64,000 nt of DNA from Bradymonadia bacterium. GTDB taxonomy: Bacteria; Myxococcota_A; Bradymonadia; UBA7976; UBA1532. Positions 30,512 through 55,671 of this stretch are shown here, piece by piece. Each line of letters begins with the position of its first letter. Position 1 is the first letter of the stretch. The notes below the pieces were generated by a model, which made no database searches, was not told where the DNA came from, and saw nothing but the letters and a program-made list of their open reading frames with translations. The translations under genes were made by a program, and so were the position numbers. The DNA is taken from assembly GCA_046290225.1 (NCBI GenBank), contig JBKAGE010000080.1, positions 3,619-67,618 of the forward strand. The letters are read 5' to 3'.

Positions 30512-30850
30512 GGGCGCTCCGCGGGTAAGAGAGTTTGTCGGGCACGGGCACGGGCACGGGCACGGGCACGAGTTGATACATACCTGGACCGGTGGCCCTT
30601 CCTGGATTCAGGGCGCAGGTTGTCATTGAGGCTGAGATGGTGCGCTTCAGAACAGCCTGAGAATTCAGGTCTTGGGGTGTATGGAGGTCAAAAGCCTCCA
30701 TTGAGAAGTAGGTGGGGCCAAGCAGAGCCTCCACCATCCCAAACCTACGAGCAGAGTCATACAGGGCCACCGGTCCAGGTATGTATCAACTCGTGCCCGT
30801 GCCCGTGCCCGTGCCCGTGCCCGAAAAACTCTCTTACCCGCGGAGCGCCC
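30512..30850. mobile_element. Fold-back (MITE/REPIN-like) element copy 1 with 88-bp arms containing (GGCACG)5
   Basis: 30512-30599 is the reverse complement of 30763-30850 with one mismatch. The interior is homologous, in inverted orientation, to copies 2 and 3. Confidence 0.85.
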
Positions 30851-30919
30851 TCCACAACACCAAACCACCCACCCCCCTCACGAAATTGACGCCAAGAGCA
30901 GATCACCCACACTGCCCCC

Positions 30920-32113
30920 ATGGCACCTTCCCACCCGTTCAAACGTTGGACCGCCGGCTTCGCTGCCAGCGTCGCCATGGTGGTGGCCACCTTCGTGCCC
31001 TGGGCCCCTGGAGACGGCAGCTTCGGGATGCACGAGGGCATCGCCGGGGCCCCAGGCGTGCGATTTCTCGCTGGGCAGATCGCCCTCGGCACCGGCGTAC
31101 TCTCACTGGCCCTGTGGTTGCTCAGTCGCGCCCGCCTCGGGGGGCTGATGGCCCTCGCTGGTGGCGCCACGGCGATGTGTGGGCTGGGCTTCGTGCCCAC
31201 GCTGAGCCTCGGTGGCGAGCCGCTCTGGGGATTCTGGCTCTATGTCGTCACCGCGGGCCTGGCGACGGTGCTCTCCGTCAGCCAGCCGCTGCGCAGCAAA
31301 GCCGACGTGCGGGCCCTCAAAGACACCATCGACCATCGGCTCAACCCCCAGACGGGTGACAGCCGCTTCGTCGACACCCTCATCATCACCCTCATCGCCA
31401 TCAACATCGTGCTGGTGATGTTGGAGACAGAGCCGGAGATTGCCCACCAGTACGGCCCGAGCTTTCTCGTGGCGGAGACGATCTCCACCTGGGTATTCGC
31501 CGTAGAGTATCTGCTGCGGGTGTGGGTGGTGGACGTCACTGACGATCGCCGCATGCCCCGGCTGCGCTATATGTTCAGCGTGATGGCCATCATCGACCTG
31601 GTGGCCATCGCCCCGTTCTTCTTGCAGTTCATGCAGATGGACCTCCGCATCGCCCGGGCGATCCGCCTGATGCGTCTGCTCCGCATCTTGAAGATGGGCC
31701 GCTACGCCCGGGCGGTCCGCACCCTGGCCAACGTGGTGGTGAGCAAGCGCGAGGAGCTGGCGATCTCCACCTTCGTGAGCTCGATGGTGCTGATCTTGTC
31801 GGCGAGCGCGATGTACTTCGCGGAGCACGAGGCCCAGCCGGAGGCGTTCCGCAGCATCCCCTCGACGATGTGGTGGGCGGTGGTGACGCTGACGAGCGTG
31901 GGCTACGGAGATGTGTCGCCGGTGACGGGGGTCGGGCAGCTCATCGGGGCGGTGGTCTGCTTGTCGGGGGTGCTGCTGGTGGCCCTGCCCACGGGCATTC
32001 TGGCCTCGGGCTTTCTGGAAGAGATGCGCCGTCAGCGCATGGGCAACGAGAGCGAAGTGTTCGGGTTCTGCCCTCACTGCGGGAAGAGGCTGCTGCCTCA
32101 TGAGGAGGATTGA
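30920..32113 (+). CDS. Voltage-gated potassium channel-like ion transporter with an extra N-terminal TM domain
   Basis: S4 RAIRLMRLLRILK, filter TLTSVGYGD, C-terminal CPHCG. Confidence 0.9.
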   Translation: MAPSHPFKRWTAGFAASVAMVVATFVPWAPGDGSFGMHEGIAGAPGVRFLAGQIALGTGVLSLALWLLSRARLGGLMALAGGATAMCGLGFVPTLSLGGEPLWGFWLYVVTAGLATVLSVSQPLRSKADVRALKDTIDHRLNPQTGDSRFVDTLIITLIAINIVLVMLETEPEIAHQYGPSFLVAETISTWVFAVEYLLRVWVVDVTDDRRMPRLRYMFSVMAIIDLVAIAPFFLQFMQMDLRIARAIRLMRLLRILKMGRYARAVRTLANVVVSKREELAISTFVSSMVLILSASAMYFAEHEAQPEAFRSIPSTMWWAVVTLTSVGYGDVSPVTGVGQLIGAVVCLSGVLLVALPTGILASGFLEEMRRQRMGNESEVFGFCPHCGKRLLPHEED

Positions 32114-32180
32114 GGGCCTTTCCCGATCGGTCCTATGAGGCTCTTGAGTTGGATGACTGGCTTTCCCTCAGAAGTTTACC

Positions 32181-32220
32181 GTACACTTGTCAGTACGCTT
32201 GAACGTACTCTTAAGGGCAC
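32181..32220 (+). promoter_or_regulatory. Putative antitoxin operator: GTAC cores phased every 12 bp
   Basis: GTAC at 32181, 32193 and 32205 (each followed by nCTT), plus GCAC at 32217, directly before the antitoxin ATG. Confidence 0.65.
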
Positions 32221-32225
32221 TCAGG

Positions 32226-32510
32226 ATGTCGAGAATCCCTGCCATCATCCCAGTCACTGATCTCAGGCAAGACTCTGCTGCAGTGCTTGAGAAGCTCAAA
32301 CACTCTGACGAACCTGTCGTCATCACCCAACGCGGCCGCGCAGCGGCTGTTTTGCTCGATGTCGATGCATACGAGCGCCTGGCCAACGAGCGCGATCTAC
32401 TTCTGGCCCTCGCCGAGGGTGAGCGGGCAATTCGTAGGGGTGAGGTTTCAACGGCCAAAGAGGTATTCGACGACTTGGATACGTTGTTTGATGAGGACGC
32501 ACCCGAGTGA
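32226..32510 (+). CDS. Type II antitoxin, Phd/YefM family
   Basis: IIPVTDLRQD...EPVVITQRGRAAAVLLDVDAYE. Confidence 0.92.
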   Translation: MSRIPAIIPVTDLRQDSAAVLEKLKHSDEPVVITQRGRAAAVLLDVDAYERLANERDLLLALAEGERAIRRGEVSTAKEVFDDLDTLFDEDAPE

Positions 32511-32794
32511 AGAAAGTTGTCTTCGCTGACCCAGCTCGCAAAGCGCTCATTGCACAGCTCAAGTACATACGTCAGCGCAATCCCAACGCAGCTCGCCGGA
32601 TCAAGGACGAGGTCAAACAGGCCACCCTACGGCTATCAGAGTCTCCACACTCGGGACGCCCACTCTCAGAGTTTCCGCACGCCCAATATCGCGAAGTCAT
32701 TGTAAGGCCGCTGAGGTTGTTCTATCGGCTAGAGGATGATGTTGTACTCATTGTAGCCGTTTGGCATACGTCACAATCCGCTGATGAACCGTGA
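32507..32794 (+). CDS. Type II toxin, RelE/ParE family
   Basis: GTGA overlap with the antitoxin; YIRQRNPNAA...P.SGR...YREVI...LFYR....IVAVWH. Confidence 0.9.
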   Translation: MKKVVFADPARKALIAQLKYIRQRNPNAARRIKDEVKQATLRLSESPHSGRPLSEFPHAQYREVIVRPLRLFYRLEDDVVLIVAVWHTSQSADEP

Positions 32795-32814
32795 GACGAC
32801 TATCCAGACAACAG

Positions 32815-33556
32815 TCAACCAACATCAGAGCCCTCCTCAAAGGCCATAGAATTCAGAGTGCGATGAAGCATACTCCAATCAAGTTCAAGCCGGCCGTCTC
32901 TACATACATAGTAGTCACCCCCCAAAGACTCATAGGCGGAATGACGGTTTGAGGACAGAGGGTTCCAGAGACCAGCGAATCCAGGCCAAACGATTTCAGC
33001 TTCTCCAGACTTCATGAGAGTTCCCAAGCGCTCACGCCTTGCAGGCGTTGACTCTTGAGAGAGTGCGGTATGAGGCAAAAGCTGCATCTCATACAAGCAA
33101 TAACTTACGAGAAAAGACGAAAGGCTCTCAGACAAAATAACACGTTTTGACGCCCTTCTTTCTTCAGAATCTACGCATCCTGACTCGTAGCCACTGCAGT
33201 CACTCACCCATACCGGTGGGTCTTCTCCATAGGGAAGAGTGCCACATGACCAAACACACTGGTTCTCGAGGGCAAATATCAGTTCACCGCTTGAGCTGGG
33301 TTGCCAGAGAACAAATTCATTCTGCATGCCCAGTACCGATTCAGCAGCGGGGTGAATGCTCTGAGGCGGCGACCACCGAAGCGCATACCCATACAACCGC
33401 CTCAATGGCATCGGTAGTTGATACTTGTCCAACTCTTCAGACGGTACGCCATACTCGGGCTTCCACGGCCCGAGCCACCACGCCATGAACGCGCACAGCG
33501 CGTCCATCCTCTCTGCGGCTGTCCTTGCCCCCCATCAAATCCGGGCGCTCGCCCAT
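32815..33556 (-). pseudogene. SMI1/KNR4 (SUKH)-like immunity protein, apparently frameshifted near the 5' end
   Basis: LPMPLRRLY..QN..LIFALENQCVW..GEDPPVW..LSESLSSFL. A strong GGGAGGT RBS with ATG 33556 is out of frame by one base at a G6 run. An ORF from ATG 33507 remains intact. Confidence 0.55.
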
Positions 33557-33575
33557 GCCCCACCTCCCGGTCAGC

Positions 33576-34601
33576 TCACCAGCGGCCCTGAATGTTGCCC
33601 ATGAAGTTGTAGGGATACCCAGGCTCCACGGCGCTCGCGTCGTCGAGGGCCTTCATCTGCGCCTCCGTCAGCTTCAGATCACCCGCAGGCAGGTTGTCTT
33701 CCAGCTGAGCCACTGAGCGAGCGCCGAAGATCACCGAGGTCACCGCAGGCTTGTGCAGGAGCCACGCCAGCGACACCTGGGCCGGCGTCGACTCTGTCTC
33801 TGCGGCCACAGCGTCCACCGCGGCGAGGATCTTCCAGTTCCGCTCCGAATCCATGCGGGCGTAGCGATCCTTCCAGTGCTCCAGGCGGGCGCCCGCAGGA
33901 GGCTCTTGCCCCTTGCGGTATTTCCCTGTGAGGAACCCGCTCGCCAGCGGAGACCAGGGGATGATGCCCAGGCCCCACTGCTCGCTCAGAGGCACATGCT
34001 CTCTCTCGAGGCCTCGCTCCAACAGGCTGTATTGCATCTGCAGGGCCACGTAGCGGTTCATGCGCTGATCGCGGCTCGTCCAGAGGCTGTCCACGAGACG
34101 ATAGGCGGCGTAGTTACTCGCCCCGGTGTAGAGCACCTTGCCCTGGCGCACAAGATCGTCCAGGGCCCGGAGCGTCTCCTCCTCGGGCGTGTCCACGTCC
34201 TGCATGTGTATCTGATACAGGTCGATGTAGTCCGTCTTCAGGCGGCGCAGGCTGTCTTCACACGCCTTGATGATGCGACGACGGCTCGCCCCAGTGCCCA
34301 GAGGGCCCGGGGCCATGCGGAACCGGCACTTGGTGGCCAGGACCACCTCGTCCCGACGGCCTGTGGCCTCGAACCAGTCGCCGATGACCCGCTCCGAGAG
34401 CCCCGCCTGGCCGTACACGTCGGCGGTGTCGAAGAAGTTCACCCCAGCGTCGAGGGCCCGGCTCATGATTTCGTGGCTGGTGGCGGCGGTGCTGCCCACC
34501 TTATGCATGAACGACGTCTCGTCGGCCTCGCCAAAGGTCATGGTCCCCAGGCACAGGGTCGACACCTTCAGGCCGCTGTGGCCCAGTCGTCGGTACTCCA
34601 T
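33576..34601 (-). CDS. Aldo/keto reductase
   Basis: LGHSGLKVSTLCLGTMTFG, FFDTADVYG, LATK, SLRRLKTDYIDLYQIH, WSPLASGFLTGKY. Confidence 0.95.
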   Translation of the reverse strand: MEYRRLGHSGLKVSTLCLGTMTFGEADETSFMHKVGSTAATSHEIMSRALDAGVNFFDTADVYGQAGLSERVIGDWFEATGRRDEVVLATKCRFRMAPGPLGTGASRRRIIKACEDSLRRLKTDYIDLYQIHMQDVDTPEEETLRALDDLVRQGKVLYTGASNYAAYRLVDSLWTSRDQRMNRYVALQMQYSLLERGLEREHVPLSEQWGLGIIPWSPLASGFLTGKYRKGQEPPAGARLEHWKDRYARMDSERNWKILAAVDAVAAETESTPAQVSLAWLLHKPAVTSVIFGARSVAQLEDNLPAGDLKLTEAQMKALDDASAVEPGYPYNFMGNIQGRW

Positions 34602-34685
34602 CTCGCGCTCCTCAATGGTTCGCGGTGAACCATAGCGAGCCAGGGTTTCATTTGCGATGAAGCTGACAGTGTGGGTTGTCGGAGC

Positions 34686-35294
34686 TTACTTGAAGTCTTT
34701 GCGGGCCTTGTGTCGGCCATCGCACCAGGGCTTGTTCGCCGAGCGGCCGCAGCGGCAGAGAGTGCCGCGGTTCTCGGGCTGACGCTCGTGCAACTCGGCG
34801 TTGATGGTGAAGGCCTCGAGGAGCCTGATCTCGCCACCCTCCATGATGTCGATGCTCACGCTCGGCACCTTGGCTTCGGGCTCTATGGCGTCGGGGGTCT
34901 TCACCTCGTAGCTCAGGGCGCCGGAGGGGCACTCCCCCACCACCTTCATGATCTCCGTCGCCGCGATGGCGTCGCCGGCCAGCTCGCGCTCTCGCAGCTC
35001 TTTGAGGGGCTTGCAGTAGAACACGTGCATGCAGGTGTTGGCGTTGAAGAAGGTGCGCAGGGTCTGGCCTTCCCACACCCGGATCTCTTTCTGGGCCGGT
35101 GGCTCGCTGGTGCCCTTGAAGCCCACCTTGCTGTGTGATCCGTCACAGAACGGGGCGTTCTGACTCTCGCCACAACGACACAGATAGATGTCACCGTCGA
35201 CTGGCACGGCGTTGCCGCAAAAATTCACAGTCTCAGCGTTGCTGACTTTGATGGGCCCATCAGGAATGACGAAGACATCGATCTGCTCGGACAT
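34686..35294 (-). CDS. CDGSH iron-sulfur domain protein (two CDGSH motifs + divergent 4Fe-4S domain)
   Basis: CRCGESQNAPFCDGSH, CMH..C...CPSGAL, CRCGRSANKPWCDGRH. Confidence 0.9.
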   Translation of the reverse strand: MSEQIDVFVIPDGPIKVSNAETVNFCGNAVPVDGDIYLCRCGESQNAPFCDGSHSKVGFKGTSEPPAQKEIRVWEGQTLRTFFNANTCMHVFYCKPLKELRERELAGDAIAATEIMKVVGECPSGALSYEVKTPDAIEPEAKVPSVSIDIMEGGEIRLLEAFTINAELHERQPENRGTLCRCGRSANKPWCDGRHKARKDFK

Positions 35295-35424
35295 GGTGAC
35301 TCCCGTAAATGTCGCGCTGTGCCCGCCCTGGTCTTCAAGGGGGCAGAGGTAGGAGGCACCACGATCTGGAAAGTTGCAAGAAGAGACGCTGCGCTCACAG
35401 CAGGTGCTATGACAGGCAGATCTC

Positions 35425-36657
35425 TCAGTACGGATACAGCTTCGCCAGACGCGGATCAGCCTTCGTCACCTCCATGAGGCCATCTTCCGTCTCGGTGCCC
35501 AACCACCAGAACCACTTCAGCTTCGGCAGAGCGCCGTCGGCGATCTGCTTCAGATGAGCCTTGCCAAAACCATTGCCGAACCGGATCCGCTCCAGCTTCT
35601 GCATGGATGGCGCCTGCAGCAGGGTCGTCACCCCCGCCTCAGTGAGCTGCGTGCCGACAATGTCGAGACCTGTCAGCTCGATGCCCGTGTCGACAAGCGC
35701 TTGAGCATGGGCGTCGGTGAAGGGCGTGTTGTCGACCTTCACTGACTTGATGGTCTCCGGCAGCTTCGAAATGAGCGTGCTCAAACCGGCCTCGTTGAAC
35801 CCTGTCTGCTCGATGTCGAGCAGCTCGAGGTTGGGCAGCTCACCAAGCCAGCTCTCGGGTGCCCGCCCGAGGGGGTTGTTGGGCATGTGCAACTCACGCA
35901 TCTGCGACAGCGCCCCATCGGCCGCGAGGCAGGTGAAGGCCTCGTCGCTCAGCTCGTTGTATTCGAGGTTGATCCGCTCGAGAGACCTCAGCCACGACGC
36001 CCCAGCGAGGTGCTGTGCGCCTTCGAGGCCGATCCCGTTGAGGCCGAGATGCAGCGCCTTGAGGCCTTCGAGCCCAGGGGCCTTGGCCAGAGCTTTGGCG
36101 CCATCGGCGCGGATCCAGTTCTGGGTGAGCACGAGGCTCTCGAGGGCGGCCCAGTCGATCTTGGCGACGAGCTTGAGCTGTGTGGGCTTGAGCTCGCAGT
36201 ACCACAGTCGGAACACCTTCCAGTGCTGCCACGGACCATCACCCTTGAAGAGCTTCAGGAACGTGCCTGGGGGCTTCACCTGATCGAAGCCCACCTGTGC
36301 CACATTGCGCAACTCGGCGTCGGGGCTGATCACTTGGGGGAGCTTCTGATCCCGTAGAGGTCGCCGCGGGCTCTCCAGAATGCGGATCAACCGATGCTTG
36401 GGCTGATGGTTCCCGGTGTAGACCTCTTTGACCCAGTGCAATGGGGCACGGCGCATCTCGTAGTCAGGGCTGCCGTTGATGCCGGACCAGCCATCGACCC
36501 GGCTGGGCCAATGCTCGGATGCCTTCTCGAAGGCAATGACCGCACCAGCCTGCTTGCTCGCAGGCATCCGGTCGAAGATCTCGACGACCTTCTTCCACTT
36601 GTTGTTCTCGTACGTCGGCATGCCCTGGGCGAGCTGCTCAAGCTTCGTGATCGACAT
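35425..36657 (-). CDS. Leucine-rich repeat protein (RI-like)
   Basis: LESLVLTQNWI..DGAKALA, LKALHLGLNGIG..GA..LA, LERINLEYNEL. GAGG RBS. Confidence 0.8.
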   Translation of the reverse strand: MSITKLEQLAQGMPTYENNKWKKVVEIFDRMPASKQAGAVIAFEKASEHWPSRVDGWSGINGSPDYEMRRAPLHWVKEVYTGNHQPKHRLIRILESPRRPLRDQKLPQVISPDAELRNVAQVGFDQVKPPGTFLKLFKGDGPWQHWKVFRLWYCELKPTQLKLVAKIDWAALESLVLTQNWIRADGAKALAKAPGLEGLKALHLGLNGIGLEGAQHLAGASWLRSLERINLEYNELSDEAFTCLAADGALSQMRELHMPNNPLGRAPESWLGELPNLELLDIEQTGFNEAGLSTLISKLPETIKSVKVDNTPFTDAHAQALVDTGIELTGLDIVGTQLTEAGVTTLLQAPSMQKLERIRFGNGFGKAHLKQIADGALPKLKWFWWLGTETEDGLMEVTKADPRLAKLYPY

Positions 36658-36722
36658 GTATCAACCTCTGTTCGGGTAAAGGGCACCGCGATGAGATGAG
36701 GGGTAGAATCTCGCGTTGGTGA

Positions 36723-37391
36723 TCAGCTGGGCATGACGTTGGGGCCGCCTTTGGCCTCGGCCTCCTGGTAGCCAGCGCGGGCCTGTACTCGCTCCAGCCA
36801 GCCCTTCAGCTTTGGGGTCTTGGTGCCTCCGCGATGCAAGAGCGCCTGAACCGGGTAGGACATCTGCACATCGGCGGCGCTGAAAGCAGCGCCGGCAAAC
36901 CACGCGTGCTCCGTGAGGTGGGCTTCCATGAACTCGGTGTGCAGTGCCAGCTCGGGATCGGTGTAGGCCTCGTCCACCTTGGTCACGAGGGTCTTGGCGA
37001 TGGGCTTGATGAAGAAGGGCAGTGGGGCCTTCTTGATGCGGTCGAAGATGAGCCGCACCAGCAGCGGCGGCATCAGCGAGCCTTCGGCGTAGTGCATCCA
37101 GTAGCGGTAGTGAGCCAGCGACTGGGCATCCGTGGGCTTGAGCTTGCCCCCACCAGGACCATCGACGAGGGCCTCGATGACCGCCCCGGACTCCGCCATC
37201 ACTACACCGTCGATGACGACGATGGGCGCCTTGCCCAGCGCGTGCACCTCTCTGAGCGCCGGATCAGCCCGCATGGTCTCCGGGTGGCGCTCGTAGGTCT
37301 TGAGCGTGTACTCGAGGCCCAGCTCGGCGAGCAGCCACAAGATGCGGTGAGATCTGGACTTCTCGAGGTGATGAACGACGATCTCGGCCAT
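36723..37391 (-). CDS. Glutathione S-transferase (GTT1-like)
   Basis: HHLEKSRSHRILWLLAELG, HALGKAP, ESGAV, HYAEGSLMP, FSAADVQM. Confidence 0.93.
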   Translation of the reverse strand: MAEIVVHHLEKSRSHRILWLLAELGLEYTLKTYERHPETMRADPALREVHALGKAPIVVIDGVVMAESGAVIEALVDGPGGGKLKPTDAQSLAHYRYWMHYAEGSLMPPLLVRLIFDRIKKAPLPFFIKPIAKTLVTKVDEAYTDPELALHTEFMEAHLTEHAWFAGAAFSAADVQMSYPVQALLHRGGTKTPKLKGWLERVQARAGYQEAEAKGGPNVMPS

Positions 37392-37481
37392 GGCCCGGCC
37401 TCTCCTTCGGTGTGTGATGTGCGGCGACGTTCACACGGGCTGTAGAGAGATCGCAAGGCCCCTTGCCTGTGGTGCGCGCTG

Positions 37482-46762: not shown

Positions 46763-46774
46763 CGAAGGCGACGC

Positions 46775-47554
46775 ATGATCACCAGCAGCACCAACCCCCG
46801 GGTCAAATCAGTGGTCCGGCTCCAGCAAAAAGCCGCGGAGCGCCGGACCACGGGCACCTTCTGCGTGGAGACCCCCCGCACCCTCGAGCGGGCCCTCACC
46901 GCGGGGCTTACCGTGGACACGATCTACTTCGATCCCGACGACGCCCCCCCCATGCACCTGATGGAGCGCGCCCTGGCCTCTGGTGCCAGGGCCATGGAGG
47001 TGAAACGCTCGGTCCTCGAGAAGATGGCGTATCGCAATCACCCCGAGGGCTTCGTGGCGGTGATCCGTGGGCGGTCGACCACGCTGGAGGATCTCGGCGA
47101 GGTGGGCTGGTGCGTGGTGTGCAGCAACGTAGAGAAGCCCGGCAACCTCGGGGCGATCCTCCGTACGGCCGACGGCGCTGGCGCCTCGGCGGTCCTCGTC
47201 GATCAACCTGGCTTCGACCTCTACAACCCCAACTGCATCCGGGCGAGCACGGGGGCGGTCTTCTCGATGCCGGTGATCTGCGACACCGCAGCGCATCTAC
47301 GCACGTGGCTCTCGGATCGAAAAATGCGCTGCGTCGCCGCAACCCCCGAGGCAGATCAGCTCTACACCGAGGCTGATCTCGGCGGCCCTGTGGCGCTGGT
47401 CCTCGGCGCCGAGGCAGAGGGTCTCGATGCGGACTGGAAAGCAGTGGCAGCTCCTGTCCGCCTGCCCATGCACGGCCTCGCGGACTCTCTCAATGTCTCG
47501 GTGACCGCGGGCATTCTGATGTACGAGACGCTGCGCCAGCGATCAGTCCGCTGA
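46775..47554 (+). CDS. TrmH/SpoU family RNA methyltransferase
   Basis: ITSSTNPRVK, EKPGNLGAILRTADGAG, RASTGAVF, LGAEAEGL, DSLNVSV. Confidence 0.93.
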   Translation: MITSSTNPRVKSVVRLQQKAAERRTTGTFCVETPRTLERALTAGLTVDTIYFDPDDAPPMHLMERALASGARAMEVKRSVLEKMAYRNHPEGFVAVIRGRSTTLEDLGEVGWCVVCSNVEKPGNLGAILRTADGAGASAVLVDQPGFDLYNPNCIRASTGAVFSMPVICDTAAHLRTWLSDRKMRCVAATPEADQLYTEADLGGPVALVLGAEAEGLDADWKAVAAPVRLPMHGLADSLNVSVTAGILMYETLRQRSVR

Positions 47555-47815
47555 GGTCTTGAGATCTCTCACCGCCTCGACGGCGGCATCGATGCTGCTC
47601 AACACCCGCCGCGCATGCCGTAAAAAGACCTCCCCCTCCGGCAAAAGCGTGACCCCTTTCGAGGTGCGCTCGAACAGCGGGGTGCCCAGCTCATCTTCCA
47701 GGGCCCGCAGGTGTCGAGTGAGAGGCGGTTGAGATACATGCAATCGCTCTGCGGCTCCACGGAGGCTGCCCTCTTCGGCGATGGCGACGAAGTATTCGAT
47801 TTGGTGCAGGCTCAT
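47543..47815 (-). CDS. Stand-alone LysR HTH protein (no effector domain)
   Basis: YFVAIAEEGS..AAERLHVSQPPLTR.LRALEDELGTPLFERT; 90 aa; AAGGAGG RBS. Confidence 0.85.
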   Translation of the reverse strand: MSLHQIEYFVAIAEEGSLRGAAERLHVSQPPLTRHLRALEDELGTPLFERTSKGVTLLPEGEVFLRHARRVLSSIDAAVEAVRDLKTSAD

Positions 47816-47831
47816 GGGCCCTCCTTCATGA

Positions 47832-48172
47832 AGAGAGAGTTTCGGGCACGGGCACGGGCACGGGCACGGGCACGAGTTGATTCGGGTGTGGACCCGTGGC
47901 CCTGCATGACTCCGCGCGTGGGTTTGTGGTGGTGGAGGCTCTACTCGGCCCCAGCAACTTATCAGTGGAGGTTTTTGCGCTCAATGCGCCCCATGTGCAA
48001 ACGGGAACATGGTTTACAGATCTGGCGAGAGCTGAACTCTCATGGCCTTCTGAAGCGTATCAACTCAGCCTCAATGACAACCATCGCCCTGAGCTCAGGA
48101 TGGGCTGCGGGTCAACATATGTATCAACTCGTGCCCGTGCCCGTGCCCGTGCCCGTGCCCGAAACTCTCTCT
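47832..48172. mobile_element. Fold-back element copy 2
   Basis: agagagagtttcg(ggcacg)5agttgat ... atcaactc(gtgccc)5gaaactctctct; interior homologous to copies 1 and 3. Confidence 0.85.
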
Positions 48173-48176
48173 ACCG

Positions 48177-48191
48177 ATACCCAATCGGTAT
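48177..48191. promoter_or_regulatory. LysR recognition box ATAC-N7-GTAT
   Basis: ATAC-ccaatcg-GTAT between the divergent LysR-HTH gene and map; matches the CatR/BenM-type T-N11-A site. Confidence 0.7.
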
Positions 48192-48227
48192 TGGACACCC
48201 ACCCACCTTCCCGTCACCCTGTGCCGC

Positions 48228-48995
48228 ATGAACGCCATCCAGAAACCAGACGCCGACGCCATGCGCCGTGCTGGGGCCGTGGCCGCCGCTACTCTGGCCA
48301 CCGTGGGCCGCGCCCTTGAGCCTGGCATGAGCACTGCTGACATCGACGCCCTCGTGCGGGCTGACACCGCCCGTCGCGGCGGGCGGCCCAGCCAGCTGGG
48401 ATATCACGGTTTTCCCGCGGCGGTGTGCACCAGTCGTAATCATGTGGTCTGCCATGGGATCCCCAACCCCCAGGAGGTGCTCGAAGATGGTGATATCATC
48501 AACGTAGACATCACCACCTGCGTCGGCGGACATCACGGCGACACCTCGAAGACCTTCTTCATTGGCGAGCCCAGCGCCGAAGCGCGCCATGTGGTCGAGA
48601 GCGCCCGCCGCGCCCGTGACGCTGGCATCTCCGTGGTGCGTCACGGCGCCCGCATCGGCGACATCGGCGCGGCGATTCAAGAGGTGGCCCGAGCGGCGGG
48701 GTGCAGCGTCGTACGGGAGCTGGGCGGCCATGGCATCGGCCAGCGCATGCACCAGCCTCCACATGTGCATCATGTAGGGCGACGAGGGACCGGCTTCAAG
48801 TTGAGAGAGGGCATGTGCATCACCGTGGAGCCCATGTTGAACCTGGGCACCGCAGATGTCGCCGAGCTCGCGGACGGGTGGACCATCGTCACTACCGATG
48901 GGCGGTTGTCGGCGCAGTTCGAGCACACAGTTCTGGTCACCCGGACCGGGTGCGAGATCCTTACGTTGCCCCCTGAGGATCAGGGGACGGGCTGA
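48228..48995 (+). CDS. map: Methionine aminopeptidase type I
   Basis: CTSRNHVVCHGIP, GDIINVDIT..HGDTS, GHGIG..MH, TVEPM, SAQFEHT. Confidence 0.95.
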   Translation: MNAIQKPDADAMRRAGAVAAATLATVGRALEPGMSTADIDALVRADTARRGGRPSQLGYHGFPAAVCTSRNHVVCHGIPNPQEVLEDGDIINVDITTCVGGHHGDTSKTFFIGEPSAEARHVVESARRARDAGISVVRHGARIGDIGAAIQEVARAAGCSVVRELGGHGIGQRMHQPPHVHHVGRRGTGFKLREGMCITVEPMLNLGTADVAELADGWTIVTTDGRLSAQFEHTVLVTRTGCEILTLPPEDQGTG

Positions 48996-50538
48996 CGACG
49001 CTCACCGCAGCGGGTCGCTCGGCGAGCACCTTCCGGGCGGCGGCGATGCCTGACATCAGACAGGGCGCCACGCCACCCCCGTACACGCCGGCGCCGGCGA
49101 GATAGAGGCCTTCGACCGGGGCCTTGGTTCGGAAGCGTCTGCGACCATACTGGTCGAGGGTGGCCGCGGGGCCATACGCGGCCCCTTCGACCGCGCCGGC
49201 GTAATGAGTGTTGGTCAGGGGTGAGGCCACCTCTTCCACCACCACATCGCCCACGAGACCTGGCCAACGATCTTCCACCGCCCCCATGAGCTGGGCCGCC
49301 ACCTCATCCTTGAGCTGGTTGTAATCATCTCCGCGTTTGAACGACTTGCTGTCGGCCCACTGCGCAAAGGGCGCATGAGGACACAGCGTCACCACCTCGA
49401 GGGTGCTCCCCCCAGCAGGGGCCATGGAGTTGCTGTCGTCCTTGAGAGAGTTCGGCGACAAAAAGAAGAACCACTCCTCGGGGATCTTGCCCTCAAAGGC
49501 CGGCGCATAGAGCCGCTCGAGATCGAAGTGGGGGTAGTCCCAGACGTTGAAGGCTCCGAGGCCGTGTTTGCTGAGATCACGCTGCATGCCCAGGAACACG
49601 CACACGCTGCCCACCGAGGATTCGGTGTTGTCGACCTTGGTCTGCAGCCGCTCGCTCAGCGTGCCCTCGGGGAGCAGCTTGCCCAGGGTGAGGGTGGGAT
49701 CGATGGCCGAAACGACGATGTCAGCGTCGATGCGCTCTCCCGTGGTGAGGGTGACCCCTGAGACCCGGCCATTGTCGAGCTCGATGGAGGCCACGGCCGC
49801 CCGGCGGCGATAGCTCGCCCCGAGGCTGCGACCACGCTCCACGAGGGCGTCTCGAAAGACCCCACTGCCCCCACGGGGGAACCACGCGCCGCTGGCGTAG
49901 TGCATCATGAGCCCCATGCCCAGCACCGCCGGGGTGCGGCTCGGCGGCAGCGCATAGTCACCACACTGACCGGCGAGCACTGAGCGCAGCTCCGGGTTCT
50001 TGATGTACTCCGCGAGCAGCTCGGCGAAGCTGCGCTCAAGCCACTTCGCTGCAAACGAGAGCCCCGTGACGGCACCGAGATCACCGATACGCCGCGAGGC
50101 CCCGATGGTCTTGCGGGAGATGAAGTTCGACACTCGATCAAAACGCTTGAGCACCTTGAAGAGCTTGTCGATGTCGCCCTTGTCTTCGGGGAACTGCGAT
50201 CGCAGCCGCTGGCGATAATTGTCGATGCCCTTGGGCACCCTCACCTCGAGGCCCGGGAATCGGATCATGTCGAGGCAATCGTCGTCCATGGGGCAGAAGA
50301 GCTGCTGGGCGTCGAGGCCGAGCTTCTCCAGGGTGAGGGTCATGCTCTGCCCCGGGCCAAGCTGTCCGATGTAGTGCACGCCCGGGTCGAAGTGGTAGTG
50401 CCGGCGAGCGAAGGGGTTGAGGAATCCTCCGAGCTGTTTGGCGGCCTCGAGGGCGACGACATCGTGCCCCTGCTCGGCGAGGCCGATGGCCGCGGCGAGC
50501 CCCCCGGCCCCGGTTCCGATGACGACAGCTTTCGACAT
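48961..50538 (-). CDS. FAD-dependent oxidoreductase, phytoene desaturase/retinol saturase family
   Basis: VVIGTGAGGL, LGG...FDPGVHY, FPRGGS, SPLTN.HY...GAAYG, GLYLAG. GAGGAG RBS. Confidence 0.9.
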   Translation of the reverse strand: MSKAVVIGTGAGGLAAAIGLAEQGHDVVALEAAKQLGGFLNPFARRHYHFDPGVHYIGQLGPGQSMTLTLEKLGLDAQQLFCPMDDDCLDMIRFPGLEVRVPKGIDNYRQRLRSQFPEDKGDIDKLFKVLKRFDRVSNFISRKTIGASRRIGDLGAVTGLSFAAKWLERSFAELLAEYIKNPELRSVLAGQCGDYALPPSRTPAVLGMGLMMHYASGAWFPRGGSGVFRDALVERGRSLGASYRRRAAVASIELDNGRVSGVTLTTGERIDADIVVSAIDPTLTLGKLLPEGTLSERLQTKVDNTESSVGSVCVFLGMQRDLSKHGLGAFNVWDYPHFDLERLYAPAFEGKIPEEWFFFLSPNSLKDDSNSMAPAGGSTLEVVTLCPHAPFAQWADSKSFKRGDDYNQLKDEVAAQLMGAVEDRWPGLVGDVVVEEVASPLTNTHYAGAVEGAAYGPAATLDQYGRRRFRTKAPVEGLYLAGAGVYGGGVAPCLMSGIAAARKVLAERPAAVSVVSPSPDPQGAT

Positions 50539-50611
50539 GGTGCAACTCCTCGACCAGACCCTCTGAGGTACCGTGCGCGCAACCTCGCACGTCATGCATG
50601 CTCCATCAGGT

Positions 50612-51379
50612 ATGCGCTCAGCACAATACGACCACCTGCAAAATGTCTGTATCCAGGGTGCCAGCCGGGGCATCGGCCTCGCCCTCGTCGGCCGCATGCT
50701 TCAACGGCCTTCCGTAGGCCATGTCATCGCCACAGCGCGTCGGCCCGAGGCCTCGGAGGGGCTCTTCGCCCTCACCCAGCGCCATCCGGACCGCCTCATC
50801 ACCCTCACTGTAGATGTCACCGACGAAGGCTCGATGGCTGAAGCTGCCCGGATCTCCACAGCGCGGGTGGGGCGTTTGCACCTGCTGATGAACGTCGCGG
50901 GTCTGCTCCACGCCCCCGACGGTATGGCGCCCGAGAAACGCATCGAGGCCCTCGATCCCGGTTTTCTGGCGCGCGCGTTCGCCGTGAACGCAACGGGGCC
51001 AGCGTTAATGGTTAAACACATGCTCCCGCTACTCCGGCACGACGAGCGGGCAGTCATCGCCAACCTCTCGGCACGGGTGGGCAGCATCGAGGACAACGGC
51101 CTCGGGGGCTGGTATGGCTACAGGGCGTCGAAGGCTGCGCAGAACCAGCTCACCCGCACCCTGGCCATCGAGCTGCGGCGTCGGGCAAAGCACGTGATCT
51201 GCGTGGCATTGCATCCCGGCACGGTGGACACAGCGCTCTCACGACCTTTTCGAGGCGGGGCGAAGCGCCGCTTCACCCCCGACGAGGCCGCAGGCCATCT
51301 GCTCGACGTGATCGATGGCCTGGGCCCGGAAGACACTGGGGCGTTCTTCGCTTGGGACGGTTCACGGATCCCCTGGTGA
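50612..51379 (+). CDS. Short-chain dehydrogenase, CsgA/C-factor-like
   Basis: GASRGIG, PEKRI, SARVGSIEDN.LGGWYGYRASK, LHPGTVDT.LS.PF, FFAWDG..IPW. Confidence 0.9.
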   Translation: MRSAQYDHLQNVCIQGASRGIGLALVGRMLQRPSVGHVIATARRPEASEGLFALTQRHPDRLITLTVDVTDEGSMAEAARISTARVGRLHLLMNVAGLLHAPDGMAPEKRIEALDPGFLARAFAVNATGPALMVKHMLPLLRHDERAVIANLSARVGSIEDNGLGGWYGYRASKAAQNQLTRTLAIELRRRAKHVICVALHPGTVDTALSRPFRGGAKRRFTPDEAAGHLLDVIDGLGPEDTGAFFAWDGSRIPW

Positions 51380-51581
51380 GAAATCCTGGCATAACCGTTC
51401 TTGTCGCCAAATATGCATCGCTGTTGAGGTCAACCAAACGAAGGTGCCCGATGGGCAACTCTTCTTCGCTCTGCTGTTTTGTCAACAGCCTCCAAATCAG
51501 AGGAATACAGGCTCTTCTTATGGTGTATCTGATACGAGAGCCTCCGAGAGGCGAGGGCTCTTGTGGATTGGGGAGATACAC

Positions 51582-52601
51582 ATGGCAGACGATCAGGCAC
51601 TGACCGGCCCAGACATTGAGCGGCTGGTCAAACGCTACCATCTTGAGCGTGCACGATACGAGCAGGCTGCAGTACAAGTCGGCACCCGTATCAGTGCTGC
51701 GCTGAGGCGCGAGGCCCGCCTGAGATTCATGATCTCGACCCGGGCCAAACATCCTCAGGACCTCAAAGGTAAGCTCCATCGCAAGCGCGAAAATCCGAAA
51801 TATACATTCGCGGCGCTTGACGAAAACCTCAACGCCATCGTCAACGACCTGGCTGGATGCCGTGTCGTAGTTTACTCCGCTGAAGATCTACAGCAGGTGA
51901 CTCGGATCATCGATGGCCTGTTCGACATCCCAGATCTGCCAGATACACACCTCGACAAGAGCCAGGAAAAAGAAGGGTACCGTGCTACCCATCGGCTCGT
52001 AGCCCTCCCGAATGATGAGAACTCGTCAACATCAGGGGCGATCTGTGAAGTGCAAATCTGTACCGTCGCAGCTCACCTGTTCAACGAGCTTGAGCATGAC
52101 ATCACGTATAAAACACATGGGGTGAAACCAACCCCGGAAGCCTGTTCGTTGCTCGATGATCTGCGATGGCTCTCTCTGGTGTCTGATCACACAGCAAGTC
52201 GCCTGATTCAGGCACAACAAGTCGCACGCGCCAACATGGAAGAGCTGACCTCACCGGATACGCTCAGATTTGCCCTTGAAGGCGCTCTCGGACGCCCCAT
52301 GAGTGGTGACTTCACACGCCTACTGTCACTGCTTGGCTCCATATTGGAGACCGTGAATCTCAGCATCCTGCACTCTTTGGGAGGCGTCCACCAGCTTCTG
52401 AAATGCGGACGAGCGCTTTCACACACATTATCTCTCGAACACACCGATGATGTGATCTACATCACGCTGGGACTCACCGAGCAATTCGGCGAGGAGCTCG
52501 TCGAGCTCTCCTCGATGTGGTCAAAGCCCGAGCTGCCTCTGAGAGCAGCACTGCTCACATGGGCATCTGCTAGGTCAACTGTGCACGAGAGCGCTGAATG
52601 A
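51582..52601 (+). CDS. RelA/SpoT synthetase-domain protein (small alarmone synthetase-like) with C-terminal helical extension
   Basis: RAK...LKGK, DLAGCRVV, GYRATH, EVQICT, HLFNELEHDITYK. GGGAG RBS. AT-richer codon usage. Confidence 0.85.
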   Translation: MADDQALTGPDIERLVKRYHLERARYEQAAVQVGTRISAALRREARLRFMISTRAKHPQDLKGKLHRKRENPKYTFAALDENLNAIVNDLAGCRVVVYSAEDLQQVTRIIDGLFDIPDLPDTHLDKSQEKEGYRATHRLVALPNDENSSTSGAICEVQICTVAAHLFNELEHDITYKTHGVKPTPEACSLLDDLRWLSLVSDHTASRLIQAQQVARANMEELTSPDTLRFALEGALGRPMSGDFTRLLSLLGSILETVNLSILHSLGGVHQLLKCGRALSHTLSLEHTDDVIYITLGLTEQFGEELVELSSMWSKPELPLRAALLTWASARSTVHESAE

Positions 52602-52639
52602 GGCACACTGCCTGTGTCGATGCAAACAAGGAGATCCAC

Positions 52640-53155
52640 ATGGCCCCTCGCTTGACCATCACCAACGCCATCGAAGCACTGGAGAAATTCAACCAGCGCT
52701 ATGACACACTGGATGTGTTCGCGGACGACCTTTACGAACTCCAACAATTCAGACGGGATGGCTCACCTCCACCAGGGCTGCAGGTCAGTGGAAGCCATAC
52801 ACTCACGGTTGTCGACACCCCCTATGAAATTGAACTCCTTCCTGAGAATGGGGTCGCGCGCATTCAACGGGTTCGTTCATCTGTCAGCCCTCACAAAATC
52901 ATCGCAGGGGCAGCGATCGGGGGCATCATCGGCGCGACCCTCGAAACGGCTGTGACAGAAAAGGAGGGTGTCGGTGCCCTCGGCCTACTCCTCGGCCTGC
53001 TCGTTGGAGGTACTCTTGCTTCACATCAGAGCACAGCCCCGAGCGTTCGACGGGTCTTCACCCTCAACTTCGACTCAGAAGAGCAAAAGTGGAGGGCCTA
53101 TGATGGTGGCCTCGTAGATTGGATGAAGATGAAACTGTTGCCCGCTGCCTCATGA
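52640..53155 (+). CDS. Hypothetical protein with a two-helix glycine-zipper membrane segment
   Basis: AAGGAG RBS; IIAGAAIGGIIGATL and GVGALGLLLGLLVGGTLA. Confidence 0.75.
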   Translation: MAPRLTITNAIEALEKFNQRYDTLDVFADDLYELQQFRRDGSPPPGLQVSGSHTLTVVDTPYEIELLPENGVARIQRVRSSVSPHKIIAGAAIGGIIGATLETAVTEKEGVGALGLLLGLLVGGTLASHQSTAPSVRRVFTLNFDSEEQKWRAYDGGLVDWMKMKLLPAAS

Positions 53156-55260
53156 GCACCCTGGAAGCACAGCAAGCGGCAACCACCATAGACATGGATC
53201 TCGACGATCTGCTCGAGCTATACATCGACGACGCCCTCAAGGCCCTCGATCGAGAGACCGCCGAGCGCAAACAGCTCCGGGCCGCCTTCGAATCGGGCAC
53301 TCCGCTCACCGCCAAGGTGCAGCTCGATCTCTACGATCCGATCGACGGTGAGATCGTCACCGTCCCTGCCGGCGCAGTGGTGCACGTGGCCGAGCACCAA
53401 GGCGACATTTTGATCGGCAAGCTCTCCGACAACACCCACAGCCTCGCCGTCGTCTACGAGCCCCCGGGTCGTTGGATCCCCCGAAAGCACTTTCTGCCCC
53501 TGAGCACACTCGTCGATCGCACCCGCATCACTCAAGGCGAGTCACCGAGCGTGAAGAGCGCGGGCCCCGGTGGCTTCAAAGGCGCCGGCCTCAAGGGCCT
53601 CGACGATGGCACCGCCCTGGCGATCCAGAGCATCGACGCCCTGAACGCCCGAGACGCCTTCGCTGTGCTGCCTCGGGGCACCCGGATTTTGATCGACGCC
53701 GCTCAATTGCAGCTCGAAGAGGGCGCCCCGACCCCAAGCGGTGAGATTTGGGTAGAGGTCACCGCCGCCGTGGGCGACGTGCGTGACAAAGCGGGCGTCA
53801 CCGAGATGCCCGAGATCCCGATCCGCATCACTGGGGGTCCTTCGGGCACCCTGCCCTTCGAGGCGCTGCAGCCGCTGAGCTTCAAGACCCACGTGCTCAC
53901 CCCCGTGGCCTACGCCCAATATCTGGTGGAGCAGCGGGGCCGTCGGCGGTTCTTGCGGCGGATGACCGGCGCGGGCCTCGCCGCAGCCTTCCTGGCCATG
54001 GACGGCATCTGGTGGACCACTTCGAAGGCGGAGTGGCCCCCCAACGCACCTCCTGCAGATCGGGTGCTCTCGGCGATGATCCCTCAGCTCGGCGCCTTGC
54101 TGGGCTACCTGCGGGCCGGCGGCAAGTACTGGTTCGAGCTCGACGGCCCGCTGATGTCGCTCAGAGAAGCCCGCCGCGGCCCCGCTGTACGTGCGCTCTC
54201 CGACGCCCTCGATCAAATCGCAGCCATCTCGGATCACACATGGGATCTCTGGCGTGGCGCGTTCTATCGCCGAGTGCACGTGGGCTGGAACGAGCACAAA
54301 CACTATCGCACTGACAAAGACGGCAAACGGACTTACACCCACTCCACCTGGACCAAGAGCTACCGCAAGATCTGGTGCGAGCCCCCCGGACTCTCGGGCA
54401 CCTGGTCCGTGCTCCAAGACTGGGACACAGCGGATGACTGGCGTCGCTCCAAGGGGCATCGCATGCTCAACGTGCCCATCTTTCAGCTGCTCGAATGCAC
54501 CCCAGAAGAAGCAGAGTCCCAGTTTCGCACCATGCGGATGGACGTCTCCTTCGCTCGGGAGGCCACGATCTCCGCGGTGACGGCAGCCCTGTGCAGCGCC
54601 CCGGCGGCCTTCTACAGCGACATCCTCGGGGCCTTCAACGGCGTTTCTCAGATGCCCCACCCTGCCCAGAGCCGCTTCCCCGCTCAAAAGCCAGCCTTGC
54701 TGGCTATGGGGGCCATCGCTGGGGCCTTCATCGCTCAGAGCAGTCATCGAAAGCAGGCTGCGGAGCTGGGTCAGAACAAGAAGGCCCTCGGCGCGCTGCT
54801 CGAAACGCAGCTGCGTACGGTGCCGGAGATGGACTTCGAGCAGGCCTGGAATGCTTTCTTTGGGATCCCGAGCTCACAGGCGGTGGTGCAGACCACTGCC
54901 GAGCGCGGCCCGGAGACCCACGATCTGGGCCGCCGCGCTCAGAGTTTCACGTATGTGCACAGCGGAGGGTTCGACCGAGGGCGGCCGCTGGACTCGATCT
55001 ACGTGGATGCTGGGCCGGTGAAGACCTACTTCCCGGAGATCGCCCAACGATGGGGACAGGCGTCACAGGCGCTCGCTGACGCGTTGCGCGAAGCGGAGGT
55101 GTTGTTGCCTGTGCTTCAGAACGTGGTGGGTACTGATATTCTCAATGCCCGGATCCGGGAAGATGCCTCTGAGGCCAGCAGCGGTGGATGGAAGCAATCG
55201 CTGTGGTTCGCGGCGCCGATTTGGGGTGCTGCGTTGCTTGATGGATTGCTCAAACGCTGA
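53152..55260 (+). CDS. Hypothetical membrane protein
   Basis: Long GC3-rich ORF; ATGA overlap with the upstream gene (alternative start 53194); internal RRRFLRR + hydrophobic helix. Confidence 0.75.
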   Translation: MSTLEAQQAATTIDMDLDDLLELYIDDALKALDRETAERKQLRAAFESGTPLTAKVQLDLYDPIDGEIVTVPAGAVVHVAEHQGDILIGKLSDNTHSLAVVYEPPGRWIPRKHFLPLSTLVDRTRITQGESPSVKSAGPGGFKGAGLKGLDDGTALAIQSIDALNARDAFAVLPRGTRILIDAAQLQLEEGAPTPSGEIWVEVTAAVGDVRDKAGVTEMPEIPIRITGGPSGTLPFEALQPLSFKTHVLTPVAYAQYLVEQRGRRRFLRRMTGAGLAAAFLAMDGIWWTTSKAEWPPNAPPADRVLSAMIPQLGALLGYLRAGGKYWFELDGPLMSLREARRGPAVRALSDALDQIAAISDHTWDLWRGAFYRRVHVGWNEHKHYRTDKDGKRTYTHSTWTKSYRKIWCEPPGLSGTWSVLQDWDTADDWRRSKGHRMLNVPIFQLLECTPEEAESQFRTMRMDVSFAREATISAVTAALCSAPAAFYSDILGAFNGVSQMPHPAQSRFPAQKPALLAMGAIAGAFIAQSSHRKQAAELGQNKKALGALLETQLRTVPEMDFEQAWNAFFGIPSSQAVVQTTAERGPETHDLGRRAQSFTYVHSGGFDRGRPLDSIYVDAGPVKTYFPEIAQRWGQASQALADALREAEVLLPVLQNVVGTDILNARIREDASEASSGGWKQSLWFAAPIWGAALLDGLLKR

Positions 55261-55341
55261 GTGCAGGTCTCAATGCCCGTAGAGTGGTCAGATGGATGTA
55301 CATTGATGACTGATGCTCTCCTTGCCTCTCGATGTGGGGCT

Positions 55342-55671
55342 CGCTCCGCGGGCAAGAGAGTTTTTCGGGCACGGGCACGGGCACGGGCACGGGCACGAGT
55401 TGATACATACCTGGACCCGTGGTCCTGCATGGCGCCGCTCCTAGGCTCTTGGTGGTGGAGGTTCTACTCGGCCCCATATATCTCTCATTGGAGGTTTTGG
55501 CCTCCATACACCCCAAGAACTGAACGAACTGAGAGTTCAGGCATACATCATCTCAGCTCAATGACTGCCTTCGTCCTGAGTTTAGGATGGGTCACGGGTC
55601 CAGGTATGTATCAACTCGTGCCCGTGCCCGTGCCCGTGCCCGTGCCCGAAAACTCTCTTGCCAGCGGAGCG
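55342..55671. mobile_element. Fold-back element copy 3
   Basis: cgctccgcgggcaagagagtttttcg(ggcacg)5agttgatacatacctggacccgtg ... cacgggtccaggtatgtatcaactc(gtgccc)5gaaaactctcttgccagcggagcg. Confidence 0.85.

Follow-up and report, generated by a model that had tools for sequence, protein, structure and literature searches.

Within a 64,000-nucleotide window (the whole stretch of DNA analysed, C80:3619-67618) of the draft genome of a Bradymonadia bacterium (hereafter G000; 8.58 Mb, 83 contigs, 64.4% G+C), we investigated a family of non-coding fold-back elements whose inverted arms are built from tandem GGCACG hexamers. An exact-match search of the window recovered seven perfect (GGCACG)5 arms and no other (GGCACG)4 site; its 14 (GGCACG)4 matches correspond to two overlapping matches per arm, compared with a chance expectation of 0.00 and no match at all in any of 100 shuffled sequences. 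The arms belong to three full copies and a truncated one, listed here with limits that include the outer stems:

30510-30852, core in reverse (-): full copy 1, an intergenic fold-back
30541-30570, +: left arm of copy 1, a perfect (GGCACG)5, exact match
30792-30821, -: right arm of copy 1, a perfect (GGCACG)5, exact match
47830-48174, +: full copy 2, an intergenic fold-back
47845-47874, +: left arm of copy 2, exact match
48130-48159, -: right arm of copy 2, exact match
55336-55677, +: full copy 3, an intergenic fold-back
55368-55397, +: left arm of copy 3, exact match
55617-55646, -: right arm of copy 3, exact match
10726-10910, -: truncated composite copy, without a left arm and with only the tail of the core

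From the outside in, copy 1 consists of an outer stem, GAGAGTTT, (GGCACG)5, AGTTGAT, a variable 10-nt block, an inner stem GGACC(G)GTGGCCC and an interior of about 150 nt, after which the same parts recur in mirror image. Copy 2 has no outer stem beyond GAAGAGAGAG and carries an insertion of about 35 nt in its interior; the arm-to-arm spacers measure 221 nt in copy 1, 255 nt in copy 2 and 219 nt in copy 3. Folded as RNA, copy 3 is predicted to form a stem of about 85 bp (-241.5 kcal/mol, z = -21.6). An earlier note on this DNA had described the three full fold-backs and their intergenic placing, and both stand, with limits that were correct to within about 6 nt; it had also described copy 1 as inverted relative to copies 2 and 3, and copy 1 indeed aligns to them as the reverse complement, the BLAST orientations of the three cores being -, + and +. 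The 'remnant' that it placed at about 10727-10912 is real, but proves to be a composite made of a core tail (10726-10756), one unit of a module that we call B (10757-10863), an arm (10868-10897, -) and the terminal GAAACTCTCTC. This 102-nt B unit (C80:14375-14481) is 97.2% identical to the reference B unit.

Upstream of copy 1 lie an IcmF open reading frame (ORF; 26443-30201) and a 125-amino-acid ORF that ends at 30509, and downstream a K+-channel-like ORF starts at 30920. Copy 2 is followed by Map, which starts at 48228, and copy 3 is flanked by convergent ORFs (53119-55260, +; 55777-57384, -). The named ORF neighbours of the four copies are IcmF, K+-channel-like, RlmB-like, Map and P-type ATPase, alongside two unnamed ORFs. 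On the other side of copy 2 a minus-strand ORF starts at 47815; by eye (no family search was run) its N-terminus resembles that of LysR-type regulators, and its GGAGG (47822-47826) stands 4-5 nt from the end of the element, so that its promoter should lie within or beyond copy 2. A scan with Rfam 15 returned no match at gathering score in the window and found no rRNA there, and across ten element and neighbour loci it gave no element match at E<=1, a tRNA being the one match.

The four copies belong to a large family. Runs of at least three GGCACG units number 127 in G000, with 43 pairs in convergent orientation and 41 arms left unpaired, and arm+AGTT junctions number 104, in line with the earlier expectation of many copies genome-wide. 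Five units is the commonest length (89 runs), followed by three (17), four (16), six (4) and seven (1), and in all 43 pairs the G-rich arm comes first. The result is a lineage-specific, gene-less and modular fold-back family at about 60-70 loci in the genome. The elements also break assemblies, with 21 of the 166 contig ends lying within 400 nt of an arm, and the true number of complete copies is therefore higher. Outside-in, the element comprises a variable outer stem of several types, GAGAGTTT(T)CG, (GGCACG)5, AGTT(GAT), the variable 10-nt block and an inner stem GGACCCGTGGCCC, and at its centre a non-palindromic interior of about 150 nt, beyond which the outer parts are mirrored; in most of the 43 pairs the inverted repeat reaches 12-44 nt past the 30-nt arms. 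Spacers of 213-223 nt are found in 28 of the 43 pairs, and others measure about 320, 423, 521, 969 and 1497 nt, the first three of these representing a core together with one, two or three B units. The unpaired arms belong to truncated copies or adjoin repeated modules of other kinds.

Within this modular architecture, the arms and the interiors differ sharply in conservation. Among five-unit arms of G000, 94 are perfect, 5 carry one substitution and none carries two to six real substitutions, the apparent three or four 'mismatches' of eight further arms being due to four-unit arrays. Solo arms are as perfect as paired ones, and the non-repetitive arm flanks GAGAGTTT and AGTT(GAT) are equally invariant. 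Cores were aligned for 28 of the 30 pairs whose arms stand 200-260 nt apart (leaving out C2:13943, which has no core match, and window copy 2, with its insertion) and share a mean identity of 76.7% (range 64-92%), with 490 transitions, 235 transversions and indels in 26 of 184 columns. Near-invariant arms next to diverging interiors identify the arms, not the core, as the constrained part, and the functional part of the element is probably the terminal arm of about 50 nt, composed of GAGAGTTT(T)CG, (GGCACG)5 and AGTT. The nearest neighbour of a copy as judged by its core differs in outer-stem type and variable block, and modules have therefore been exchanged between copies. The variable block usually remains complementary across its two sides, with changes on both sides in 8 of the 18 base pairs of this helix, and mixed combinations occur as well.

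Two other accounts of the core were considered and set aside: adenine mutagenesis of the kind seen in diversity-generating retroelements, given a variability by consensus base of 0.14 for G, 0.13 for C, 0.18 for T and 0.17 for A, and a protein-coding core, ruled out by eye from its frequent 1-nt indels.

In one copy of the family the arms enclose a gene. At C72:82300-83328 (969-nt spacer), the order is arm, B, B, gene, B', B', arm, with the B units inverted across the two sides and with the outer stem, (GGCACG)5 arms and GGACCC(A/G)TGGCCC inner stem of the gene-less copies. The enclosed ORF is intact (141 amino acids), has on reading a GGAGG 5 nt ahead of an internal ATG, and matches PF05635 (E=3.3e-21), the 'S23p' or 23S rRNA intervening-sequence protein family of four-helix bundles, as well as PDB entry 2GSC (XCC0516; E=1.2e-10). 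The report on XCC0516 describes it as a homopentamer of four-helix bundles (PMC4990558). Arms enclosing the gene of a four-helix-bundle protein were among the things that the earlier note had proposed to look for, and the C72 cassette is such a case. The PF05635 family is not known to have catalytic activity. The other PF05635 gene of G000 (C77:107005-107860, or L020:1239-2093) lies in a non-repetitive inverted repeat of about 200 nt and of different sequence, with arms that are 88-97% complementary.

Across genomes, PF05635 genes are repeatedly found between inverted arrays of short tandem units, as we observed in a survey of 41 loci, 10 named plasmid loci and one metagenome locus. Among 28 genomes of the same bacterial family, a flanking inverted repeat of at least 28 nt is present at 10 of 14 PF05635 matches, with arm units that vary by locus (CGTGGT, CCCTTG, CGCGCT, CGCGCCA, TCAGCTT and others), and in a phylum sample such a repeat is present at 13 of the 23 loci having both flanks; among 200 randomly drawn control genes of G000 (300-600 bp), 2 reach 25 nt, with a maximum of 28 (Fisher p = 3e-20). 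The density of tandem arrays of 6-8-nt units is 2.30 per kb in the 250 nt nearest the gene and falls to 0.11 per kb at distances beyond 500 nt (21-fold; 41 loci), and at least one array is found at 24 of the 41 loci, with arrays on both sides at 15. The named plasmid loci carry arrays in nine of 10 cases (Nostoc, Trichormus, Scytonema, Anabaena, Pseudanabaena, Geminocystis, Picosynechococcus, Azospirillum and Gemmatirosa), inverted in 8 of the 9 and often reaching the start and stop codons, and such arrays are confined to 3 of the roughly 58 intergenic spaces in 50 kb of a Nostoc plasmid. On three cyanobacterial plasmids the heptamer-armed PF05635 genes are wedged in operons, between cas6 and cas4 in two different genera (L111, L116) and between cmr2 and cmr3 (L107), which agrees with the 18 such genes within cas loci given in the report of Zhang et al. 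2013 (PMC3936711). A metagenome contig carries a PF05635-like ORF between (CGTGCC)8(CGTGCT)5 and (AGCACG)12, and none of 20 PF05635 loci scanned for rRNA lies inside it.

The repeat period tends to follow the protein, and the unit the genome. On a phylogeny built from 40 proteins, the hexamer-armed genes, 10 in number, all belong to a single 15-member clade (Shimodaira-Hasegawa-like approximate likelihood ratio support 94) and the 7-8-nt-armed genes lie outside it, with 2 period changes on the tree compared with a shuffled mean of about 8; periods were called from an inverted repeat of at least 20 nt with periodicity of at least 0.5, and the labels of L021, L095, L106 and L107 were set by eye. 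That the repeat period follows the protein clade is suggestive rather than statistically proven, as the pattern consists essentially of one deep split with one reversal. By genome, (CCCTTG)4 has 55 matches in G019 and 38 in G041, both of which hold PF05635 genes with those arms, compared with 0, 0 and 1 in G005, G008 and G000, and (CGTGGT)4 has 70 matches in G041, which has the cognate gene, and 0, 0, 0 and 3 elsewhere. Many of these (CCCTTG)n and (CGTGGT)n matches are convergent pairs 100-330 nt apart, that is, gene-less fold-backs. Five units is the mode in two of the families, with 89 of 127 runs in G000 and, by hand count, 22 of the 42 arrays of at least 4 units in G041.

The (GGCACG)5 family itself has a narrow range in the material searched. 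Its arm+AGTT junction is present in one of the 28 genomes of the bacterial family, G000, the core was found in none of 40 relatives, and a plasmid library contained no element-like DNA. Three matches to arm+AGTT in species-representative contigs (a Streptomyces and two Planctomycetota metagenome-assembled genomes) are each single and were for that reason not taken as the element; two metagenome contigs also matched the pattern, one of them being the contig with the PF05635-like ORF described above. In a seawater DNA run (X1), a close relative with the arms and the type-b outer stem is represented at partial coverage in short contigs, with 8 differences over 207 nt and 5 over 165 nt in the flanking gene; its 36-nt arm unitig has a depth of 92.5, compared with 2.3-4.5 for the other pieces, and no contig bridges the site. 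Plain (GGCACG)n arrays, about 30 of them, are also found in G019, the genome of another genus, where, together with (CCTTGA)n arrays, they build nested fold-backs of which they are the outer layer. The nested fold-backs of G019 (L108, L109, L120-L123) and G041 (L124) have concentric arms of different hexamers, in the order (CGTGCC)5, (CCCTTG)n, (CCTTGA)n, centre and mirror image, with an interspersed repeated unit of about 50 nt.

We favor, with a probability of about 0.55, a reading in which the elements are non-autonomous derivatives of a hairpin cassette resembling the intervening sequences (IVSs) of rRNA, whose ring-forming protein would recognise tandem units. By analogy with rRNA IVSs (PMC4990558) we infer transcription through the element, RNase III cutting and any mobility step, and binding of the repeats by the protein is proposed as well. 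In the proposed working, the element would be read through from the upstream gene and would fold, like an rRNA IVS, into a stem of about 85 bp that is a likely RNase III substrate, and a ring-shaped oligomer of four-helix bundles would recognise the arm units, roughly one per subunit, on single-stranded RNA or DNA. Such recognition would keep more than 90% of the arms letter-perfect while the interiors drift, and may also be what lets copies with and without the gene spread or persist at gene 3' ends. If the arms are what the element or the protein needs, this would explain perfect arms, drifting interiors and recombining modules alike; the notion that a ring reads the units was prompted by the five-unit mode in two hexamer families, by the match between period and clade, and by the difference in unit between cassettes. 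A mechanistic precedent is TRAP, a ring oligomer that reads one short (G/U)AG repeat per subunit on single-stranded RNA; its fold is unrelated, making this an analogy, and binding in the present case is conjecture. Avd of the diversity-generating retroelements is a homologous pentameric four-helix bundle that acts on nucleic acid with repeats, but the two RVT_1 reverse transcriptases of G000 (C79:178-181 kb) do not lie near arms, and the cores show no adenine-specific mutation.

Several findings weigh against this proposal. A PF05635 ORF is present inside the hairpin in one of the 43 paired copies (C72) and in none of the window copies, and the gene could be cargo that landed in pre-existing fold-backs. 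The absence of near-identical cores and of target duplications means that the copies could be old and fixed. Long flanking repeats are missing from 4 of the 14 and 10 of the 23 PF05635 loci, and G019, a genome 82% complete, has no assembled PF05635 gene with (GGCACG)n arms. The agreement between period and clade amounts to one evolutionary event and not to 22 independent ones, and the arms of the G005 gene, (CGCGCCA)3, match once, at the gene's own flank, and are thus undispersed. Finally, gene-flanking arms elsewhere often have 4, 6, 7, 8 or 12 units, which weakens the idea of strictly one unit per subunit.

The siting of the elements relative to genes, which like the stable fold we count for the cassette reading, also bears on the explanation that we regard as unlikely but the most serious of the alternatives, namely that the host selects these hairpins, as with repetitive extragenic palindromes (REPs) and bacterial interspersed mosaic elements (BIMEs), to stop transcription in both directions, stabilise mRNA 3' ends or provide RNase III sites, selection on each operon keeping them and the gene being incidental cargo. 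With genes called by a crude caller based on ORFs and third-position G+C (5218 genes, 82% coding), 36 of the 43 pairs can be assigned a context, the other 7 touching contig ends: 18 are convergent, 14 tandem and 4 divergent, and convergent spaces make up 961 of 5138 intergenic spaces genome-wide (18.7%; p = 2e-5). Where an element follows a gene, the stop codon and the nearest arm are typically separated by 30-50 nt, which places the outer stem against the stop, and elements start 0-40 nt past stop codons. Core orientation in tandem contexts is unbiased (8 copies in the same direction as the genes, 4 in the opposite one), consistent with a function that resides in the palindromic arms, which are invariant even in truncated copies, and the stem is very stable. 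Yet no U-tract follows the closed stem in the three full window copies, which argues against a canonical intrinsic terminator, and solo arms, unable to form the hairpin, are just as perfect as paired ones. Selection for host hairpins would moreover leave unexplained both the siting of PF05635 genes beside arrays across phyla and the co-occurrence of unit and gene by genome, and the family was not found in any of the 27 other genomes of the bacterial family. A variant in which outer stems are host terminators that harbor an inserted element was also rejected: the stem motifs lie almost only beside arms, and a search for short empty hairpins of the five stem types returned none.

The arms could alternatively be maintained as G-quadruplexes, (GGGCAC)n with at least four tracts of three guanines (G3) folding on one strand, an i-motif forming on the other and the hairpin competing with the quadruplex. 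A five-unit arm does offer five G3 tracts separated by 3-nt loops, and 110 of the 127 runs have at least four units. The parallel is with the GGGAATC repeats of Xanthomonas, for which Rehm et al. 2015 report about 186 sites per genome, 70-75 convergent pairs, a preference for four units, locations within 50 bp of stops and quadruplex formation in vitro (PMC4692102). The present arms share the traits of that class, with at least four G3 units, intergenic placing near stops and frequent convergent pairs. We nevertheless hold the quadruplex explanation to be improbable. Most arms that flank PF05635 genes elsewhere lack G3 tracts (CGTGGT, CGCGCT, CGTGCT, TCGTAC, TCAGCTT, GTCAGAG, CTGTAGA, ACGAGGA, GGAGATA, ACAGGTG), and a quadruplex therefore cannot be the property that the class shares; the mode here is five units and not four, and the non-repetitive GAGAGTTT and AGTT(GAT) are as invariant as the G-rich units.

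The long terminal inverted repeats, many copies, intergenic placing and outer-stem subfamilies would also suit an ordinary miniature inverted-repeat transposable element (MITE) or a REP doublet forming a hairpin (REPIN), mobilised in trans by a DDE, IS200/RAYT (REP-associated tyrosine transposase) or IS110-type transposase elsewhere in the genome, and a multicopy insertion appears to target the arms themselves. We rate this as very improbable. No target-site duplication was found at the inverted-repeat ends of the 43 pairs. The earlier suggestion of a REPIN-like element fails on a search for Y1/RAYT proteins (PF01797) that gave no match in the 99.4%-complete G000 and was positive in 6 of 14 control genomes, and no IS110-type transposase was found in G000. 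The only transposase within a copy is that of the 1497-nt-spacer element (C50:55565-57121), an IS4-like DDE gene (392 amino acids, PF01609 E=1e-10) that interrupts the core and has its own duplication of about 12 nt of core sequence; no gene carrying the element's ends other than the four-helix-bundle cassette was found in the assembly, in which repeat regions are incomplete. Selection for transposition alone would, furthermore, not predict arms so much better kept than interiors in old copies. Of the description as a non-autonomous mobile element, what survives is a dispersed, non-coding fold-back without a transposase or target duplication of its own; recent transposition finds no support in the cores, no two of which are more than 92% alike. 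The earlier note did not describe the constraint on the arms, the modular build, the placing at gene 3' ends, the G tracts of the arms or the like architecture around PF05635 genes of other phyla.

Hardly credible, in our view, is the remaining alternative, that the core of about 220 nt is the functional RNA of a structured small RNA gene family, as the earlier note had also entertained: short hairpins do recur in the core (TGGAGG...CCTCCA, CCTGA...TCAGG), but the interior consensus fold reaches only -8.8 kcal/mol with the long terminal stem alone conserved, interior helices 3-5 have 0, 0 and 1 compensated pairs and 13-17% unpaired cells, single-nucleotide indels are frequent, Rfam gives no match, and B units, other modules or a gene can take the place of the core.

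The cassette reading relates the elements to systems so far treated separately. IVSs of rRNA with an S23p ORF are described from Leptospira, Coxiella, Brucella and Xanthomonas, of unknown origin and long suggested to be mobile elements whose ORF serves mobility (Warrier et al. 2016, PMC4990558). As described there, they share with the present elements a long terminal-inverted-repeat hairpin (with a 28-bp stem in Coxiella), which in one of the 43 paired copies here likewise encloses a PF05635 ORF, the lack of a transposase and a patchy distribution; the copies reported here differ in following protein-coding genes instead of interrupting rRNA helices, and in being mostly gene-less and modular, at about 60 loci, with tandem-hexamer arms. 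The GGGAATC and GGGGA(C/T)T repeats of Xanthomonas and Nostoc are similar to them as intergenic arrays of 6-7-nt units with G3 tracts, in convergent pairs near stops and with a preferred unit number, and are stated to be unassociated with insertion sequences (PMC4692102). That report, as far as its main account goes, mentions no associated gene or shared interior, in contrast to the homologous core of about 220 nt, outer stems, B units and gene-bearing copy described here.

A third class comprises the TAACTGA repeats of Beggiatoaceae, cyanobacteria and Bacteroidetes, described as dozens to hundreds of intergenic heptamer arrays (MacGregor 2015, PMC4679880), mostly direct and upstream of genes and in this respect unlike the present fold-backs. 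MacGregor proposes an unidentified repeat-binding protein as the possible mobile entity behind them, and the main text of that article contains 'helix bundle', 'S23' and 'intervening sequence' nowhere (PMC4679880). Clade-I PF05635 genes are accompanied by TCAGxxx heptamers, to which the reverse complement of TAACTGA, TCAGTTA, is similar; this makes the PF05635 family a candidate for that protein.

MITEs, REPINs and the mosaics of BOX elements and BIMEs are, like the elements described here, small, non-coding, hairpin-forming, intergenic, multi-copy and modular, a BOX element consisting of boxA, a variable number of boxB and boxC. The present family differs from them in lacking target duplications and any RAYT or transposase as partner, in its tandem-hexamer arms, and in having as partner a gene of the PF05635 family. 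Each of the ingredients has precedents: intergenic fold-back repeats, IVSs that carry S23p ORFs, and convergently paired arrays of G-rich heptamers. What we did not find in print is the link among them, namely PF05635 genes between inverted arrays that dozens of gene-less fold-backs of one and the same genome also carry; a literature search that covered few subscription journals and no supplements gave no report of tandem repeats flanking PF05635 or four-helix-bundle genes.

Tentatively, and with more doubt than attaches to the cassette reading itself, the same logic may extend further. PF05635 proteins might in general be sequence-specific partners of short tandem arrays, a gene between inverted arrays of 6-8-nt units would then be a widespread, hitherto unrecognised selfish hairpin cassette for which rRNA is one landing site, and intergenic hexamer or heptamer arrays would be its gene-less derivatives or binding sites. 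Such an extension would cover the (GGCACG)5, (CCCTTG)n and (CGTGGT)n fold-backs and possibly the GGGAATC repeats of Xanthomonas, the TAACTGA repeats of Beggiatoaceae and cyanobacteria and the short tandemly repeated repetitive heptamers of Nostocales. Three puzzles are decades old, namely the role of the IVS proteins, the origin of the rRNA IVSs and the presence of hundreds of intergenic 6-7-nt arrays in some bacteria; if the association holds, they become one question, whether a pentameric protein binds, maintains or spreads the repeats that flank its gene. The elements lie at the ends of operons or, in cyanobacteria, within cas operons, and could there shape transcript processing as well.

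A number of minor observations concern the arms and their surroundings in G000. Instead of a core, some single arms are joined via AGTCGAAG to a shared module of about 50 nt, 'D' (C51:52652, C50:74624, C34:548773, C59:38549, C75:87957), followed in C51 by an ORF that by eye resembles a ribbon-helix-helix antitoxin, and a module 'C' follows arms at C7, C37:247875, C46:8338 and C55:61165. A multicopy insertion lies inside hexamer arms at unit boundaries, with 14 junctions of one end (for example in C6, C22, C72, C77 and C82) and 10 of the other (for example in C4, C5, C35, C37, C41, C47, C51 and C67), leaving 1-4 arm units on either side; all junctions are within about 90 nt of contig ends, the interior of the insertion is outside the assembly and the window has none of it. 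Its siting suggests an element with the arms as its specific target. A second intergenic repeat, 'R', of about 200 nt with multiple hairpins, has 51 BLAST matches of at least 100 nt that are about 80% alike (for example C75:41870-42120) and has no Rfam match; 7 of these matches have an arm within 600 nt, and the one nearest to the window, outside it, is C80:103541-103723. Finally, tRNA genes adjoin truncated arms or R repeats at C35:240450 and C55:60730-60815 (L058:133-214), one of them confirmed by Rfam at 58 bits.

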